Part shown: positions 14,498 through 61,525 of the stretch, piece after piece
How positions within the stretch are numbered: position 1 is the first letter of the stretch
Layout of the letters: each line of letters starts with the position of its first letter
Assembly: GCF_006345805.1 (NCBI RefSeq)
Contig: NC_043010.1
Span: 31,310,001-31,374,000, forward strand
Direction: 5' to 3'
From: Octopus sinensis
Lineage: Eukaryota
Length of the DNA stretch: 64,000 bases
Program-made: the position numbers and the translations under genes
The notes under the pieces: model-generated
What the model was told of the DNA's origin: nothing
What the model saw: the letters and a program-made list of their open reading frames with translations, nothing else
Database searches by the model: none

Positions 14498-15185
14498 GCC
14501 TCCGTGTCGGTGGCACGTAAAAGCACCATCCGTTCGTGTCCGTTGCCAGCCTCGCCTGGCCCCCGTGCCGGTGACACGTAAAAGCACCATCCGTTCGTGG
14601 CCGTTTGCCAGCTCTGTCTGGCCCCCGTGTCAGTGGCACGTAAAAGCACCATCCGTTCGTGTCCGTTGCCAGCCTCGCCTGGCCCCCGTGCCGGTGACAC
14701 GTAAAAGCACCATCCGTTCGTGGCCGTTTGCCAGCCCTGTCTGGCCCCCGTGTTGGTGGCACGTAAAAGCACCAACCGTTCGTGGCCGTTTGCCAGCTCT
14801 GTCTGGCCCCCGTGTCAGTGGCACGTAAAAGCACCATCCGTTCGTGTCCGTTGCCAGCCTCGCCTGGCCCCCGTGCCGGTGACACGTAAAAAGCACCATC
14901 CGTTTCATGGCCGTTTGCCAGCCCTGTCTGGCCCCCGTGTTGGTGGCACGTAAAAGCACCATCCGTTCGTGGCCGTTTGCCAGCTCTGTCTGGCACCTGT
15001 GCGGGTGGCATGTAAAAAGCACCCACTACACTCACGGCGTGGTTGGCGTTAGGAAGGGCATCCAGCCGTAAAAACACTGCCAGATCTGACTGGGCCTGAT
15101 GAAGCCTTCCAGCTTCACAGACCCCAGTTGAACCGTCCAACCCATGCTAGTATGGAAAACGGATGCTAAATGATGATGATGATGA

Positions 15186-17264: not shown

Positions 17265-17343
17265 TCATATATATATATATACTATATCTATATATTATAT
17301 ATATTTATATATATATATATATATATATATTATATTTATAGAT

Positions 17344-17382
<39 letters not shown>

Positions 17383-17560
17383 TATATATATAGATATTAT
17401 ATATTATATTTATCTATATAGAATATATATATAATTATATTTATATAATTATATATATTATATATATAATATATATTATATTTAATATATATATATATAT
17501 AGATATTATATATATATTTATTTTTATATATATATATATATATATATCTATTATTATATT

Positions 17561-17593
<33 letters not shown>

Positions 17594-17811
17594 ATATAAT
17601 ATTATATATATATATATATTATATATATATATTTTATATATATATATTTATATATATATATATATATATATATAAGATTATATTATATATATATATTATA
17701 TTTATATTATATATATATATATATATTTATATAGATATTATAGAGATTATTTTATATATTTTTAATAATCTATATCTATTTTAATATATATATATATATT
17801 ATCTATATATA

Positions 17812-17852
<41 letters not shown>

Positions 17853-19377
17853 ATTCTATATATTTAGATATATATTATATTATTATATATAATATATTTA
17901 TATATATATATTAGATATATATATATATATATATTATATATATTATATTATATATATTATTTATATATCTATATTTTATATATATTTATATATTATTAAT
18001 TATATATATTTATATATATATTATATATATATATATTATATAATTTATATATATATATATATTTATATTAATATATATTTTATATATATATATAGATTTT
18101 ATATTATATATATATTATATATAGTATATATAATATATCTAGATATATATTTATATATATATATATAATTATATTATATTATATATATAATTATATATAT
18201 ATTTATAATAATGAATATTAGATTATATATATTATTTATTATATATATCTATATAATATTTATATATATATATATTAGATATATATATATTTATATATTA
18301 TAATATATATATATATTAGATATATTATTTAATATATAGCTATATATATAATATATTATATATATCTATATATTTTAGATATATATATATATATTTATAT
18401 ATAGATAGATATATTTTATATATTATATATATATATTATATATTATATATATATATATTATTATATATATATATATATATATTTATATAATATATATATA
18501 TATTTATTATATTTATATATATCTATATATTTATATATATATATATATATTTATATATATTATATAATATTTATATATTATATATATATATAGTTATATA
18601 TATATATTATATATTAGATAAATATATATATTATATATATATATATATATTAATATATATATATAGATTATATTATATATATATTAATATATTTATATAG
18701 AATAATATATATATTTATATATATATATATAGATATATTTTATTATATAATATTATATATTATATATATATATAGATATATATATATATTATATATCATT
18801 ATATATATTTATATATATATATATATAGTTATTATATATATATATATTTATATTATATATATATATTATATATATAATATATATATATTTATATATCTAT
18901 ATAGATTTATTATCTCTTATTTATATATATATATATATATTTAGATATATATATATTTATATATATTTATATATATATATATATTTATATATATAATATA
19001 TTTATATATAATATATATATATTTATATATATATATATATATATTTTATATAATATTATAATATTTATAATATATATATATATTTATATATATATATATA
19101 TATATATACTTTATATATATATCTATATATTTATATAGATATATATATATATTTATATATATTATATATATATAATATTTATATATATATATATATCTTT
19201 ATATATATTATATATATATATTTATATATATATATATATATTTATATATTATATATATATAATTCTATTTGATATATATTTATATATATTTATATATATA
19301 ATATATTAATTTATATTATATATATATTTAGCTATATATAATATTATATATTTATATATATATATATATATATATTT

Positions 19378-19414
<37 letters not shown>

Positions 19415-19426
19415 ATATATTATATT

Positions 19427-19491
<65 letters not shown>

Positions 19492-19712
19492 ATTAATATA
19501 TAATTTCTATAATATTATATATATATATCTATCTATATATATATATATATATATATCTATATATCTATTATATATATATATATATATATCTATAATTATA
19601 TATAATATATATATATTTATATATATTTATATATATATATATATTATATATATAATATATATATTTATATTTATATAATAGTATATGTATATATTATATA
19701 TATTATATTTAT
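17265..19712. repeat. long imperfect (TA)n microsatellite
   Basis: About 2.4 kb almost exclusively A/T with irregular indels. Confidence 0.95.
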
Positions 19713-19713
19713 A

Positions 19714-20497
19714 TGCAAAATATCATACTTGGGGGAGTGGTCAAGGAGTCAGTGGTAAATTAGATAAAAGAATAAATAAAAGAATAAAAAAATAAAAAAA
19801 TATATAAAAGAATCGAGTTTTAGGTAAATAAGGAGATTCTCACTTATACCTATACACATATGTATACATATATACACACACACACACACATATATATATA
19901 TACACATACACATACATACATATATCTACACATATATATACATATATATATATATATCTATATATACACACATATATATATATATACATATATATATATA
20001 CACACACATATGCATACACATATACACACACACATGTATATATACACACACGACCACACAACATATTACACACATAAAAATATATACATACACACACATA
20101 CACATACACGCATACACACATATCCACATACACACATGCACACCAACACCACACACACATGTGTGTGTATATATATATATGTATAATATATATATATATA
20201 TGTGTGTATATATAGATATATATATATATGTATATAGATGTGTAGATATATGTAGTATGTGTATGTGTATATATAGATATATATATATATATATATGTGT
20301 TTGTGTGGGTATTGATGGTGTATGTATATGTGTGTGTGGTGTGGGTAGATGTCTACATATGTGTTATAGGTATAAGTGAGAATCTCCTTATTTACCTAAA
20401 ACTCGATTCTTTATATTTTTTTTTTTTTATTCTTTTATTTATTCTTTATCTAATTTACCACTGACTCCTTGACAATCCCCAAGTATGATATTTTGCA
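19714..20497. repeat. large inverted repeat
   Basis: 19714-19855 is the reverse complement of ~20365-20497; inner arms are (CA/TA)n vs (TG/TA)n around ~20160. Confidence 0.85.
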
Positions 20498-20583
20498 CTA
20501 TGCCTACCCCCAAAAAGTCCCCCACCACACCCCTTTTAAACCTGCCTAAATGTATAAATGCCAATTACAATTCTTTGTTAACT

Positions 20584-20634
20584 AGCTTCCTGAAGATTCT
20601 CTTGAATGAAAACAGTTCTAGTCCTGTAGAAGCT
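20584..20634 (+). ncRNA. type I hammerhead-like motif
   Basis: AGCTTC-CTGAAG-ATTC(tctt)GAAT-GAAA-ACAG(ttctagtc)CTGT-A-GAAGCT. All three stems pair but core spacing is off by 1 nt on each side. Followed by AATAAA and (TA)n. Confidence 0.6.
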
Positions 20635-20649
20635 CCTTCTATTAATAAA

Positions 20650-20710
20650 ATATATATATAGATATATATAGATTTATTATATCTATAATTATATATATTT
20701 ATATATATAT

Positions 20711-20764
<54 letters not shown>

Positions 20765-21163
20765 ATATATATATTTATATATTATATACTTATATATATT
20801 ATATTATATATATATAAGATATTTATATTATATATATATATATATATTTATAATATATATATATATAGATTATTATAATATATTTTAGATAATATATATA
20901 TATTTATATATATATATAATATATATATTTATCTAATATATATAATTTATCATATATATATTATATCTATATATATATATATATTTATATAGATATTATA
21001 TATTTATATATCTATATTATATATATATAATATATATATATATTTATATATTATATATATATTAATATATATATATTATATATAGTATATATATATATAT
21101 TTATATATATATTATATACGTATATATATATATACTATATTATATTTATATATATATTATATA

Positions 21164-21207
<44 letters not shown>

Positions 21208-21255
21208 GTATGTATGTATATATATGTATGTATGTATATACATATACATACATAT
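20650..21255. repeat. imperfect (TA)n microsatellite
   Basis: Low-complexity A/T tract. Confidence 0.9.
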
Positions 21256-21324
21256 AATTGATGCATATATACTGACAGGAACCGTAATCACTCAAAAGCA
21301 CTAGTTCAGAATATTTACTATATT

Positions 21325-24394: not shown

Positions 24395-24955
24395 GCGTTT
24401 CGTAATCCGGCAGGACACGTGAGGCCATAACCCATGGCCCCTACCTGGGACGTAGTCAGTCCACCTGTGCATACCTTCCTTCTTGGGACACTTGTGAAGA
24501 CCTGTTGAGGCAAGTGAAAATCAAACCAAATCAAAATCGATGAACATCAATGGAATTTGTATCTTTGTGGTACCAGTGCCGGTGGCACATAAGAAAACTA
24601 TCCGAACGTGGCCATAGCCAGTACCGCATCGACTGGCCTCCGTGCTGTGGGCACGTAACAAACACCATCCGATCGTGGCCGTTCGCCAGCCTCGTCTGGC
24701 ACCTGTGTCAGTGGCACATAAAAAACACCATCCGAGCGTGGCCGTTCGCCAGCCTCGTCTGGCACCTGTGTCGGTGGCACATAAAATCACCCACTACACT
24801 CTCGGAGTGGTTGGCGTTAGGAAGGGCATCCAGCTGTAGAAACACTGCCAGATCTGACTGGTCTGGTGCAGCCTTCGGGCTTCCCAGACCCCAGTTGAAC
24901 CGTCCAACCCATGCTAGCATGGAAAGCGGACGTTAAACGATGATGATGATGATAT
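24395..24955 (+). mobile_element. (GAT)n-tailed retroposon 3' end with 3 internal repeat units
   Basis: Same family as 14498-15190. Decayed copies at ~34870, 36330, 37230, 52020, 58040. Confidence 0.8.
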
Positions 24956-48656: not shown

Positions 48657-50956
48657 CTTCGTAACACAGTGTAAATAAAAATGCACCAGAGTTTTTAGTC
48701 ATCTGTCAAGTCACAACAAGGACCTTAGACAGATAATACTTTCCTTAAGATGTGGGCTGTGCCCAATAAGGCTGCTTTTTGCAAGACATCAATCTTGCAT
48801 GGGATTTCCAGTTGCCTTAAGAAGTCATGAAGTTTCAATGGGATTGAGCCCAACACTCCGATCACCACTGGTATCACTTTTACATTACCCTCTCACATTC
48901 CATACAGTCTTGCCATTTCCACTTGCAATTCAGAGTACTTGGTGATTTTTTCAACCTCTTTACTCACAACATTCATGTCATTTGGTATGGCTACATCAAT
49001 GATCTGACAGTATTTGTCTCTCTTACTCAATATGACAATATCCCACTGACGGTGTTCGATTACACAATCTGTCTGAAAATCATAGTACCAGAGTATTGTT
49101 ACTTTTCCATCCTCCTGCATGACTTTATTTGGTACATGCTCATACCAGTTCTCTGTTACTTCATATTGGTATTTATGGCATAAGAGCCCATGGAGATACA
49201 CACACATTTTATTGTGGTGGTACTTGTATTCCTTTTGTGCAAGGCTTTCACATCCATTTACCAAGTGGATCAGATTGTCCACGGTCTTTCCACAGATTCT
49301 GCATTTCTGTGTGTCAGAAGTTTTATAGATGTTATACTTCACTGACTTGGTAGCGAGAGCCTGGTTTTTTAGTCTTTTGGTGGTACACTTCAAATCACCT
49401 CGCTCAAGTCATGCCCACGATGCTGTATTATCCTTAACGTCTTGTGTATTCCTTTCAAACTGTCCATGCAGTCTCTTTTCAATCTCTTCTTTTCTCTTCT
49501 CCTCAGCTCTTTGGTTAAACTCCTCCTTGCCCATCATTTCATCTGCATTTACACCCATATCTTTCAGGGTATATTGCAGCAGGTCTTCATCACTATTTGT
49601 CAAATACTCAGCAAGCGTTCTCCTTTCACTCCTTATACAATGGTCTATACTAGTTAGTCCTCTGTCACCATTCTTTCTTTTCATATGCAGTCTGTATACG
49701 TTTGCTTTAGTTCATATACGTTTGCTTTAGGGTGTAGTGCCCCATGCAGCAGCATCAACTTTCTCGTCCTTCTATCCAGTGTTGATATTTCTTCCTTAGT
49801 CCATTTGAGGATGGACGCACTATATCTGACCACCGCAACTGTCCAGATATTCATTGTGGTAATCAAATTTTTGGCATTCAGGGTGGATTTCAACACCATC
49901 TTCACCTTTTTTGATATGCCTCACTGACCTTGACTTTCATCAGACAATTTGTGATGGTGACTTGCATTAGAAGATTTGTCATGTTGTCAGCAACACCAAA
50001 CATCTGCAGGCATTCAACAATCCAAGAATGAGGCATCATATCATATGCCTTCTTAAAGTCAATCCAAGCCATAGACATGTTTGTATGATGTTTTTAAACA
50101 ATGCTTCAAAACCGTTTTATCAATGACCAGGTGATCCTTGGTACTCTGAGAACTGTTCCTACATCCTTTTTGTTCCCTTGGTAGTATTTCTTCCTGTGCC
50201 AGGAAAGTGTATGTTTTTGCTGCACACATTTCAGTGAGTATCTTCCAGATTATGTTTAGGCATGCTATGGGGACGGTAGTTTCCCACAATATTCCCCTTT
50301 CTTCTATCTTTCACTATAAGTGTTGTCCTCCCATCACCATCCACATGGGAACTGTACCTTTCAGGACACACTCTTTCAATTGGGCTGCTAGTCTTTCATG
50401 CACCATGTGGCATCTCTTCAGCCAAAAGCCATGAATCCCATCTGGTCTGGGGGCTTTCTAGTTAGGCACTTTACCCACTTGTTCTTTCACATCACCTGTG
50501 CTTATGACAATATTCCTTTGTTTCTTTCCTCCTTGTAATTCTGTCTTGATAGTTCCTATCCACATTGCATCCCTTTTATGCAACACATTGTTTCCCCATA
50601 ATCTGCTCCAGAACTTCTTGGCTTGATTTGCATCAGGAGCAACATTTTCCCCAAAGTCTCCTTGTAACATTCAGAAGAATTGCTTTAGGTTATTTTTGAA
50701 GAATCTATTCTCCTCAAACTGCTTATTTCTGTTCACAAATCTTCTGATCTTCTGGCTTTTTGCCATGATCCTCTGTTTTAACTGCTCTATTACTGCACCA
50801 AATCTATTCTTCCGTATTTTATATTTCTTCTCTAATTTTTCTTGGTTGGTCTTTTTCCCATTTTCCCAGTTTCCTCTTAACTATTGCTAAATTTTTTCTT
50901 GGTTTTGCCTTGCACACATTATGTCCCTTTCCACCATAATTCTTTTGCTCCACCAT
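48657..50956 (-). mobile_element. R4/Dong-clade non-LTR retrotransposon (RT + CCHC + restriction-like endonuclease), decayed
   Basis: EQKGCR..STKDHL, AWIDFKKAYD, VVRYSA, CRICGKTVDNLIHLVNGC, HRQWDIVI..IIDVAIP, KITKY. Flanked on both sides by (ATT)n. RT core deleted near 49950. Confidence 0.88.
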
Positions 50957-53939: not shown

Positions 53940-54127
53940 TAGTTGAAATTTACATAAAAACAAAAGACGAAGACAAGTGTATAAACAACAAACAGGTGTA
54001 TTAGTTTAACGCCCGGGACGGTGAGAAAGTCTTTTACGTTTCGAGCCTACGCTCTTCAACAGAAAGGAACCCGAGAAAATAAACACAGAGAATAAAAAAA
54101 AACGTTTGGAGTTAGCGGTCAATCATG
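53940..54127 (-). mobile_element. Penelope-like terminal fragment with minimal hammerhead-like motif (54031-54066)
   Basis: Reverse complement CTTT-CTGTTGA-a-GAGC(gtag)GCTC-GAAAC-GTA-AAAG; flanked by (TA)n on both sides. The Penelope assignment is inferred from motif type. Confidence 0.55.
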
Positions 54128-54214
54128 CGTATATATATATCAGCGATGGTTCGTTGCTGGACTGGAAAAAGCATATAGTATTTTGCGAGTGGGGTGAGTT
54201 TTCATTACTAGCTG

Positions 54215-54273
54215 GTGATTAACACACGCTGAGGACGGGTAACCATTCAGAAACTCGAGTCCGTGTGTATCAC
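54215..54273 (+). ncRNA. type I hammerhead ribozyme (intact catalytic core)
   Basis: Stem I ACACACG(54222-28)/CGTGTGT(54262-68), extended by GTGAT/ATCAC across a 2-nt bulge; core CTGAGGA 54229-35; stem II GGGT-aacc-ATTC; GAAA 54250-53; palindromic stem III ACTCGAGT; GTC cleavage triplet 54259-61. Confidence 0.85.
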
Positions 54274-55402
54274 ATAATGCTAGGGATGGGAGTGATGACC
54301 TCCCCTCACAAATACTAATCGGACACAGAATGTGTGTCGTTAGCCATCTGAAGGAGAAGTGTTCCTGGGGCTATAAAAGTCAGTAGCACTATCCCGTTTG
54401 GGACGCCACACATGGCAATTATGTTACGATAAATATATATGCACCTATATGTAATATGAAATAAACATCGACGTGTTGTAATAATAATAATAATAATTTG
54501 AAAATAGGTTTTAAAAATAAACTAAATAGAAACACAAGTAAAAATATTCAGTTTTATAAGAGACATACACACTCATGTAAAGTTTCTAGAATAAATGTAG
54601 TGGTGGGTAATCTTGTACTTTAACGTACCGTTTTCACTTTTGCAGACTAGCTTTTTTTTCTTCTAGTTGTGCAGGGTTTTTTTTTCCTTCCAGTTTCGTA
54701 AATGAATAGTATCAATAGTGATAATAACAACAATGATTTAGTAATTAGAATTTTAAATAAATTCCCTTCAGGAAATATTCTTCACATGTTGCTAGGAGTA
54801 TTTTATTTTTTTCCAAAACTCAGTCACCACCAGGCTTATATACGTTTTTATATTGTGAAGCAGCAAATCCATGTAATTAATAAATAATTACAGAACACAG
54901 CTAGTGTTTGTAGACATACTGAAAGCCAAAAGTTAGAAGAAAACGCCAGCAAAATTAAAAAGTAATACATTACTCATGGAAAATCCCCAGGTAAAAAGAA
55001 AACTACGTCTGCAAAAGTGAAGTCTCTACGTTTATACTCTTAGACAACCTAAACTTATTCTTTCAAAGCATGCCAAAGTTCTTCGAAAATTTGTTCGAAT
55101 TAAAGTGCTTTTCGATCTAAACGTACGTTACAGTATATTTGGCTGTGTTGAACCGGCATCGTTTTGAACAAAAAATGCACACACACACACCACAGTTGTT
55201 TTGTCCCATGTTATCTGTAGCGAAGCAGACCATAGATAATCAAGAGTGGCCAACTGCGTGTATTTGTTGTACATTGTATGTCTTGGACTACATTATCCAA
55301 CATGTCTCATTCTTTTTGAAAGGCTGTATGGTGGAATTTGATTGAGATTCTGTTGTTATTTCTAGCAGGTCATTTGACCTGCTAGAAATAGAGGCTAGTG
55401 TG

Positions 55403-59712: not shown

Positions 59713-60016
59713 GTAAGCATTGTTTTCAAAATATTTTTGTTTTCAAAAATTAAAACTGATTTTGGAGAATCTAAATTCAAAAGATGAAGTTATTACAAAC
59801 AATGAAATCAAATTTATAAGTCAAAATTAAAATATATATTTATATATACACACACACACATACGTATGCATGTATGGGTGTGTATGTGTATATATATAAG
59901 TATATGTATGTAAAGAGAAAGGACAATCCACTAACAGTTAAATATACATACTAATTTGTTTCTTTTAAAATACCAATTGTTATTAGTTGCTGTCTAGAAT
60001 TTGACCATTAAAAATT

Positions 60017-61525
60017 ATGGATAAAAACTTGTCACCGAAACCATTTCCTTGTGACTTGTGTGGAGAAAGTTTTTCACGTCGCAGTACTATGCTGCAACAT
60101 AAACGAACTCATACTGGTGAGAAACCGTTCCATTGTGAGATCTGTTCAAAAGGATTTACACGACCATACACACTCCAAAAGCATCGTCGCTGCCACACGG
60201 GTGAAAAACCATTTGCTTGTGATATTTGTGGTCGTAATTTCTCACGCAGCAGTACTTTGCATGAACACAAGCGAACGCATGCCGGTGACAAACCGTTCCA
60301 GTGTGATATCTGTAGGGACAACTTTTCACGGCGGAGCACATTACTCCAACACCATCGCACGCATTCTGGCGAGAAACCGTTTCCCTGCGAAGTTTGCGGG
60401 AAGAAGTTTACGCGTCGATACACTTTGCAGAAACATGCAAGAGACCACACACGTGAAGCACCATATCACTGTGAAATATGCGGGTGCCGGTTCACACGGC
60501 CTTTCGCTCTTCAGAAACATCGCCGCTCACATACAGGAGAAAAACGATTCCATTGTGATGTATGTGGGGAGAGTTTTTCTCGAAGAAGCAACCTGCATGT
60601 TCACCAAAGAACCCACACCGGCGAAAAGCCATTCAGCTGTTCGTTGTGTGGCAAAAGCTTTTCTCGCAGAAGCAATCTACAAGTACACATACGCAGTCAC
60701 TCAGGAATTAAGCCGTACTGCTGTGAATATTGCAGTAAACGGTTTGTTCGAAGCAGCACACTGTTAGAACATAAACGCATTCACACAGGTGAGAAAGCTT
60801 CATTCCAAAATTTCAATCCTCCTCCTCTTCCTCCTCCTCCTCCTGTTGCCATCAATCCAACTACTGTTGTCAGCAACAACAACAACAACAATAATGCTGA
60901 GAAGAATAGTTGCGTCATGAAAAGTTCAATTGATGACAGCCACAAAGAATTCGTTTTCAGTACTAACAATAACAACACCAATACTAATAGTGACGTTGCC
61001 ATGGGAAACGGTAAACAGTTTACCTACAACATAATTACAGCAGCTGCTAACAATACTTTTCAGAATACTAATGGAGACGAAAACTCTCATAATGAGGCAC
61101 TTCTTGCAACAGATAATAATATGCAATTCAATCAACCCAGGCTAGCCACCACCACTACAACTGATGGCTCTATGTTGCACTGCAGCAACTGTGGAAAGCC
61201 ATATGCCCAATGTTGCCATGTACAACACCAGCAGCTGTTGCTGCAAAGGGGAGCAACCTATTTACAGTCGCAAGCCAGGACCCGGTTATCAGCTTTGGTG
61301 ACAGCCAGAAAATGGCTTGAGCCGCCCACTGTGATAGTAGCTGCCTCTACCACTGCAAACCAGACCAGTATGCCCCCGAATGCTGCTGCTACAGCCATAG
61401 CTTATTCTGAACCTTCCAAAACAGGCCTTCAAACTAACCTTGCTGCAGAGACACTGCCACCTACAGCTTGTAATACACTGGTAGTTGTACAACCCCCAAC
61501 TGCTTGCCCTATAATGGAAACCTGA
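60017..61525 (+). CDS. C2H2 zinc-finger protein, 9 tandem fingers plus low-complexity (Pro/Asn/Thr/Gln) C-terminal tail
   Basis: 502-aa ORF with nine fingers (60044-60784) and TGEKP-type linkers, a degenerate CSNC finger in the tail, and an acceptor-like ttgttattag about 30 nt upstream of the ATG. Confidence 0.95.
   Translation: MDKNLSPKPFPCDLCGESFSRRSTMLQHKRTHTGEKPFHCEICSKGFTRPYTLQKHRRCHTGEKPFACDICGRNFSRSSTLHEHKRTHAGDKPFQCDICRDNFSRRSTLLQHHRTHSGEKPFPCEVCGKKFTRRYTLQKHARDHTREAPYHCEICGCRFTRPFALQKHRRSHTGEKRFHCDVCGESFSRRSNLHVHQRTHTGEKPFSCSLCGKSFSRRSNLQVHIRSHSGIKPYCCEYCSKRFVRSSTLLEHKRIHTGEKASFQNFNPPPLPPPPPVAINPTTVVSNNNNNNNAEKNSCVMKSSIDDSHKEFVFSTNNNNTNTNSDVAMGNGKQFTYNIITAAANNTFQNTNGDENSHNEALLATDNNMQFNQPRLATTTTTDGSMLHCSNCGKPYAQCCHVQHQQLLLQRGATYLQSQARTRLSALVTARKWLEPPTVIVAASTTANQTSMPPNAAATAIAYSEPSKTGLQTNLAAETLPPTACNTLVVVQPPTACPIMET

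Follow-up and report, generated by a model that had tools for sequence, protein, structure and literature searches.

A hammerhead cassette of Octopus sinensis as a solo, truncated copy of a retrozyme family likely mobilised by Penelope-like elements

Introduction

A preliminary description of a 64-kb stretch of the Octopus sinensis genome (hereafter, the window) pointed out a hammerhead ribozyme in a hairpin-rich cassette and proposed that it was a young retrozyme or the pseudo-LTR (pLTR) of a Penelope-like element (PLE). This raises the question of what the cassette is, whether it could still give rise to a circular RNA, and which machinery placed it there. Non-LTR retrozymes have been described in metazoans, with units of 350-390 bp in mussel, 330/350 bp in axolotl and 220-240 bp in coral (Cervera and de la Pena 2020, PMC7229834), and those of vertebrates have been presented as derivatives of PLE pLTRs (Li, Clavereau, Pollet 2026, bioRxiv 10.64898/2026.07.22.740005). 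The mobilisation of animal retrozymes by PLEs is a proposal that has so far been drawn from co-occurrence and pLTR homology.

Results

A type I hammerhead motif in the window

We found, both by eye and by script, that the hammerhead core letters are in place: CUGAGGA at 54229-35, GAAA at 54250-53 and GUC at 54259-61. The type I architecture that had been claimed for them, with a 7 + 5 bp stem I carrying a 2-nt bulge, a palindromic stem III and a C-A mismatch, is borne out by the coordinates. Stem I pairs 54222-28 with 54262-68 (7 bp) and 54215-19 with 54269-73 (5 bp), with a TA bulge between them; stem III (ACUCGAGU, 54253-60) is self-complementary; and stem II is closed by C54236·A54249.

54215..54273, + strand: type I hammerhead motif, predicted cut after C54261
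54236-49, + strand: stem II (C·A, G-C, G·U, G·U, U-A, loop AACC)

A structural descriptor, applied to both strands, returned one motif in the 64-kb window; 60 dinucleotide shuffles gave none. The Rfam Hammerhead_1 search that had been suggested as a check turned out differently: across the window nothing reached the gathering threshold, and between 53000 and 55500 no hammerhead appeared at E ≤ 10, so that this model leaves the window copy undetected.

A dispersed family of 352-357 nt units

A genome search with the cassette, also suggested at the outset, uncovered a family of head-to-tail 352-357 nt units; it gave at least 66 places from the best 40 scored of 2155 candidates, and the best non-self full-length matches among the candidates scored were 82-90% identical. 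Pattern matches in the genome numbered 531 for subfamilies A and B, 630 for subfamily C and 891 for all (control 0 in each case), and a pattern scan of metagenomes gave 0 matches. From 108 fetched loci, 18 of which were the same place taken twice, we used 90 (L097 and L098 resemble one duplicated locus, and both were kept); loci were picked by their likeness to the queries, and the ages, end counts and tandem counts given below are therefore biased.

The flanks of other copies show that the unit closes on itself beyond the extent of the window copy, with a natural tandem period of 357 nt in subfamily A, 349-354 in B and 353 in C. We distinguish four subfamilies, A, B, C and D (unit 352-357 nt, GC 42-47%), the split between B and D being fuzzy, as about half of the 13 windows assigned to D are B-D intermediates. 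Mean divergence from the subfamily majority is 7.4% in A (51 segments), 4.7% in B (29), 4.0% in D (12) and 1.6% in C (39), and the majority sequences of A and C are 71% identical. Subfamily A is mostly sub-dimeric; a head-to-tail hammerhead pair occurs at 1/32 loci of A, 13/24 of B, 2/10 of D and 9/21 of C, with B and C enriched by selection. Tandems of 2-3 units are found in B and arrays of up to ~7 in C, where the units of one array (L105) are 99.2-100% alike; in an older subfamily, the units at L037 are 99% alike. A TATAAA of subfamily A (54372-77) was considered as a conserved TATA promoter and rejected, since B, C and D do not keep it (TACAA, TAAAA).

Sequencing runs matching ~210 nt of subfamily C plus flank came to 23 rows from 20 runs, of which 0 are on record as RNA. 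When four of these runs were placed on a C array, the stretch was covered by contigs that bear four organism labels, and to call the runs RNA is a guess. One run (X8) has a 383-letter contig that goes back 353 letters, and another (X5) a 383-letter contig with 3 differences; these contigs look like a closed loop, a shape expected of a tandem array as much as of a circle, and we do not count them as evidence.

The window copy is truncated and decayed

Set against the family, the cassette and its surroundings resolve into the following features:

54130..54139, no strand: (TA)n run at the 5' junction, from the sequence
54139..54430, + strand: solo truncated copy of the 357-nt subfamily A unit, from comparison with the family
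54141..54166, + strand: family hairpin CAGCGA../..TTGCTG, whose stem covaries between subfamilies
54172..54316, + strand: long imperfect rod, a continuation of stem I to either side of the ribozyme, from the predicted fold
54321..54416, + strand: hairpin cluster forming the branched head of the unit, from the predicted fold
54430..54440, no strand: 3' junction, a TA-like run at which the copy stops (family end 1), from the sequence and the family ends

The copy runs from unit position ~237 (cut site = 0), via the ribozyme, to the first fixed 3' end (~173-175). It thus holds ~293 nt of the unit and is ~62 nt short of the full 357 nt, which revises the ~290-nt cassette and ~300-nt circle first envisaged. 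Nor does the epithet 'young' suit it: the copy lies 6.3% from the subfamily A majority, typical of that subfamily, and the genome holds 3 exact matches to a 43-mer of A vs 630 to a 38-mer of C. It also carries a copy-specific 5-nt duplication, CTGGA, directly after the CAGCGA../..TTGCTG hairpin.

Several simpler observations of the preliminary description proved correct. A script recovered all four small hairpins, the TA runs lie at 54130-39 and 54430-40, CpGs are retained (12 per 290 nt in the cassette vs 2.8 per 290 nt across the window), and no ORF of 110 aa or more overlaps the window copy. In the minimum free energy (MFE) fold of the 290 nt, the GGGAG/CTCCC segment pairs into the long stem I extension, its local hairpin being absent, and the hammerhead junction is unformed; the whole-cassette fold scores z -2.4, with 4/200 shuffles equally good. 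We found no second ribozyme motif in the window and no second unit at the locus, and with a single ribozyme the copy could not release a circle. The window copy is likely an old, decayed product of subfamily A, shorter than one unit; given its lone ribozyme and its weakened stem II, it is likely a dead end that would make no circle and cleave slowly at best. The window locus itself is an ordinary decayed insertion.

Ribozyme and fold across the family

The core and helix III are kept across the subfamilies; the exception is U4C, which gives the core CCGAUGA and is a subfamily trait of many, though not all, copies of B (L034-L073). Among subfamily A windows, 28/42 keep the core and 14/42 fail the core test, some of the latter being register shifts. 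Stem II covaries, going from GGGU/ACCC in A and B to AGGU/ACCU in C and D, and the pair at its base varies among C·A, C·U, U·U and G-C. The C·A mismatch of the window copy is an inherited trait of subfamilies A and B rather than damage. The two G·U pairs among its four stem II pairs are specific to the window copy and stem from C>T changes (family ACCC to ATTC); its local stem II hairpin reaches -1.7 kcal/mol vs -5.0 in an intact subfamily A copy. How far the hammerhead fold lies above the MFE in 68-mers (7.9 kcal/mol in the window copy, 4.5 in an intact A copy and 8.7 in a young C copy) fails to separate the copies, and we therefore set this measure aside.

Subfamily C has a canonical G10.1-C11.1 hammerhead, which scores 32.2 bits against Rfam Hammerhead_1 (E=5e-6), just under the gathering threshold of 34. 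Invertebrate motifs with a 2-bp helix III are reported to cleave as monomers (0.8/min in coral, 0.1/min in mussel), and the axolotl motif, whose helix II has a basal U·U, to cleave weakly alone and well as a dimer (PMC7229834). From these published activities we infer that the subfamily C ribozyme should be competent and the window copy poor.

In a hammerhead alignment of 46 rows, hand-picked from 149, 88.7% of cells pair vs 14-55% when the alignment is slid. Two-sided changes fill 14 cells vs 5.8 in shuffles (2/500 shuffles as high), and in the same hand-picked rows the number of pairs with two-sided change (4 vs 3.3; 200/500) and the number of further pair types (476/500) do not rise above shuffles. 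Folded as circles, the four majority sequences score z -5.9 to -6.7 (30 shuffles each), and a natural C monomer scores z -6.4 (0/100 shuffles); 12 of the 104 consensus pairs show two-sided changes. When the structure from one subfamily was tested on another, with redealt substitutions as the null, we counted 3-11 two-sided changes vs 0.6-4.7 expected (6/6 tests, p below 0.001 to 0.03), and the fraction of changed pairs kept was significant in 4/6 (A>C p=0.27; C>A borderline, p=0.05). This excess of two-sided changes in modelled structures points to selection on the RNA structure of the source elements.

Insertion ends carry a Penelope-type signature

Of 140 3' ends (90 loci), none coincides with the cut site and 115 cluster at one or the other of two fixed positions some 45 nt apart, ~+174 and +217 nt past the cut. 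TA directly follows the 3' end in 92/140 cases vs a background of 10.8%. The 5' ends are scattered (TA in 20/139, near the cut in 4/139), and an inverted partner lies at the 5' side of 87/149 segments, both arms of a pair being counted. In subfamily C, picked mostly by the ribozyme alone, 35/36 ends lie at the two fixed sites. Metazoan non-LTR retrozymes lack LTRs, PBS and PPT, and their target-site duplications, where present, are large; we saw no LTR pair in the copies, whose ends lie in (TA)n, which hides target-site duplications. With its 5' truncation, inversion, tail and microsatellite bias, the family bears the insertion signature of PLEs; endonuclease-bearing (EN+) PLEs are described as having truncated copies, some partly in tandem or inverted at the 5' side, with a bias towards microsatellites and a tail of 30-40 bp (PMC8557442).

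At two loci (L107, L108), variants are common to all units of the array and to both inverted arms. Such sharing would fit rolling-circle copying of one template; it also fits local duplication (cf. L037), or a source array of uniform units that was transcribed into a linear RNA.

Penelope-like elements in the same genome

PLE fragments lie near 7/90 loci, and one of them led to a young autonomous Neptune-type family with RVT_1, a CX4CX2C linker and a C-terminal endonuclease region. Its open frames exceed 800 codons and its nearest copies are 97-100% identical, so this family was probably active recently. In a second family, the GIY-YIG match is weak (E=0.004).

L111-L130 and L110: loci of two PLE families of Neptune type, both bearing a minimal U3-A8 hammerhead whose helix III is the palindrome ACCGGU

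The U3-A8 core in the minimal hammerhead of the young PLE is the one described for PLE minimal hammerheads (PMC4209133). The PLE ends in TA, 120-153 nt (12/20) or 166-180 nt (7/20) after the cut, at sites ~40 nt apart. The comparison of the unit with pLTRs covers two PLE families of many (14156 candidates): it revealed no detectable similarity in 20 loci of one and 1 locus of the other. The 3' end of an RT-GIY-YIG ORF runs into the unit at 0/90 loci (flanks of 1.5 kb or more), and the suggestion that the cassette is a pLTR thus finds neither a gene that ends in the unit nor a related pLTR in these two families. The proposed PLE partner is consequently assigned from the end signature.

One locus joins the two kinds of element. 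At L094:13-1708 (G000:C1, ~76386.4-76388.1 kb), the 5' side of a subfamily C copy is joined, with no intervening TA, to an internal piece of PLE ORF and an inverted PLE 3' arm; the PLE piece is 98% identical to its nearest copies, and the retrozyme piece lies 1.6% from its majority. A possible reading is co-insertion by template switching, and insertion into an existing PLE with deletion fits as well.

Discussion

We are confident that the cassette belongs to a dispersed family of 352-357 nt hammerhead repeats, as a solo copy that is truncated and has diverged by ~6%; these repeats are likely non-autonomous non-LTR retrozymes mobilised by PLEs. The proposed cycle would begin with transcripts of tandem arrays, which would cleave themselves after GUC into unit-length RNA that a host ligase could circularise, by analogy with mussel and axolotl (PMC7229834). 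A PLE RT-GIY-YIG enzyme would then nick (TA)n and prime on the side of the circle that faces the ribozyme junction, ~+174 or +217 nt past the cut. It would copy from less than one to ~7 turns of the circle and often add an inverted arm; the window copy would be one such product, issued by an old subfamily.

A more specific version, which we hold tentatively and rate at somewhat below even, is that of a long-lived lineage of circular RNA parasites (71% identity between its oldest and its youngest subfamily, the fold being retained) copied in trans by a still-active Neptune-type PLE, through rolling-circle reverse transcription that primes at two fixed internal sites and with no pLTR shared; L094 would then be one event that used a retrozyme circle together with PLE RNA. 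If this is true, a matched young pair of retrozyme and enzyme would be at hand for a direct test of animal retrozyme movement, and it would be structure, rather than pLTR homology, that is recognised.

The unit might instead be the pseudo-LTR of an autonomous PLE, all copies, the one in the window included, being its 5'-truncated 3' ends. The PLE-type ends, the inversions and the TA targeting would all follow from this, and in Xenopus 24/57 retrozyme families matched known repeats, nearly all of them PLEs (bioRxiv 2026.07.22.740005); moreover, our comparison covers only two of the many PLE families. However, followed upstream, the copies lead into a further turn of the same unit, into an inverted arm or into flanking sequence of no relation, the few PLE fragments nearby yield one direct join, to an internal ORF piece, and arrays consist of ~7 pure units. 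The ribozyme of the unit is canonical, whereas the PLEs of this genome carry minimal variants, and we consider the pseudo-LTR reading unlikely.

We regard as less probable still that the window copy is a functional ribozyme used by the host, for example to cut the transcript of a C2H2 zinc-finger gene that lies downstream on the same strand:

60005-61525, + strand: ORF with tandem C2H2 zinc fingers, 506 aa between stops, 5.6 kb from the cassette on its downstream side

The core is intact in this copy while a third of the subfamily A windows fail; against this, 28/42 keep it as well, the copy has diverged as neutral A copies typically do (6.3%, CpG 14%), and its stem II has gained two G·U pairs. 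The slightest chance goes to a DNA minisatellite spread by recombination, with the hammerhead an incidental relic. Near-identity of units within arrays would agree with it; dispersal over many contigs, fixed 3' ends, strand-polar 5' truncation with inversion, and compensatory RNA-structure changes between subfamilies that are only 71% identical all speak against it.

Returning to a PLE-mobilised retrozyme family, its placement among known systems can be made on several features. Each unit carries a canonical type I hammerhead and is non-coding, within 150-450 bp and below 50% GC; copies run head to tail, a self-paired circle is predicted, and PLEs with minimal hammerheads coexist in the genome. 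By these features the family would be a metazoan non-LTR retrozyme. The window locus itself lacks the two consecutive ribozymes by which Li et al. 2026 define 'active' elements. The term retrozyme, as used in the preliminary description, thus holds for the family (tandem units with one type I hammerhead each, no ORF and a stable circular fold), of which the locus is a solo, truncated derivative.

The closest parallels are the retrozymes of PMC7229834, which share with our family the size, the GC content below 50%, a type I hammerhead with 2-bp helix III and tetraloop, tandem arrays, a highly paired predicted circle, and accompanying PLEs with minimal hammerheads. The axolotl HHR_Amex2 of the same paper shares with subfamily D a basal U·U in helix II. 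For those retrozymes cleavage and circles have been demonstrated, whereas the octopus family is known from sequence and predicted fold; the window copy, unlike them, is a solo fragment. In the parts of that paper considered here, we found no mention of the fixed double 3' end, the (TA)n targeting or the 5' inversions.

The vertebrate elements of Li et al. 2026 resemble ours in their monomer, dimer and multimer organisation and in co-occurring with Neptune/Poseidon PLEs. In the sections covered, solo copies are treated as non-active offspring, 1/9 dimers cleaved in vitro, and the lineages named include no mollusc. Their link to PLEs is pLTR homology; ours is the insertion signature, with homology absent for two PLE families. 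Like EN+ PLEs of the Neptune type (PMC8557442, PMC4209133), our family shows 5' truncation, partial tandems, a 5' inverted copy, (TA)n bias and no visible target-site duplication; it differs from them, as they are presented there, in a unit of 0.35 kb without an ORF and with a canonical rather than a minimal hammerhead. The end tail is ~43-50 nt here vs 30-40 bp in EN+ PLEs (Craig et al. 2021, PMC8557442). A plant-type LTR retrozyme, in which paired LTRs with type III hammerheads flank a central region and the duplication is of 4 bp, was rejected on the type I topology and the pure tandem units.

Literature searches, whose scope ended short of repeat databases and of the PMC7229834 supplement (which may list cephalopod retrozymes), found no description of an octopus retrozyme. 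The words ribozyme, hammerhead and retrozyme have 0 occurrences in the main text of a study of Octopus vulgaris repeats (PMC13282606), and octopus and cephalopod have 0 occurrences in the covered text of PMC7761336 and PMC5680766. For giant squid, 235 Rfam hammerhead_1 annotations are given, without analysis in the part considered (PMC6962438). On sequence grounds, the family would add a further animal lineage to a retrozyme class known from corals, mussels and amphibians. It brings to the proposal of PLE mobilisation 140 insertion ends that carry the PLE signature, and a subfamily diverged by 1.6% that coexists with PLE copies up to 100% identical, which makes it a convenient test of animal retrozyme mobilisation. 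Its series of stem II base pairs (C·A, C·U, U·U, G-C) is a ready set for relating ribozyme strength to transposition.

Neighbouring repeats and other features

A second repeat adjoins the TA tract at the 5' side of the window copy:

53942..54128, - strand: separate adjacent repeat that ends in (TA)n and contains, at 54030-54068, a minimal hammerhead-like motif

This motif consists of the core CUGUUGA, an extra A, GAGC/GCUC, GAAA, CG and UA, and the CUGUUGA core (U replacing A6) recurs in most of the 12 loci shown. The adjacent repeat occurs in at least 42 places from the best 40 scored of 2165 candidates, at 88-92%, and is likely the 5'-truncated 3' end of a PLE, inserted in the same TA tract as the window copy. 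Repeats of this type also adjoin retrozyme copies in L003 and L011.

A hammerhead-like motif at L109:4417-4465 (CUGACGA, a long stem II, GAAA and a palindromic AUCAUGAU) lies in a partly self-inverted repeat unrelated to the retrozyme family and possibly represents a further ribozyme family. Elsewhere in the window, a 171-aa frame on the minus strand (48893-49408) had no Pfam match at E ≤ 0.01; we take it to resemble the C-terminal part of a non-LTR retrotransposon. A degenerate (AT)n tract of 4 kb extends over 17267-21256, and related GC-rich tandem repeats of 62-63 bp lie at 14498-15023 and 24650-24786.
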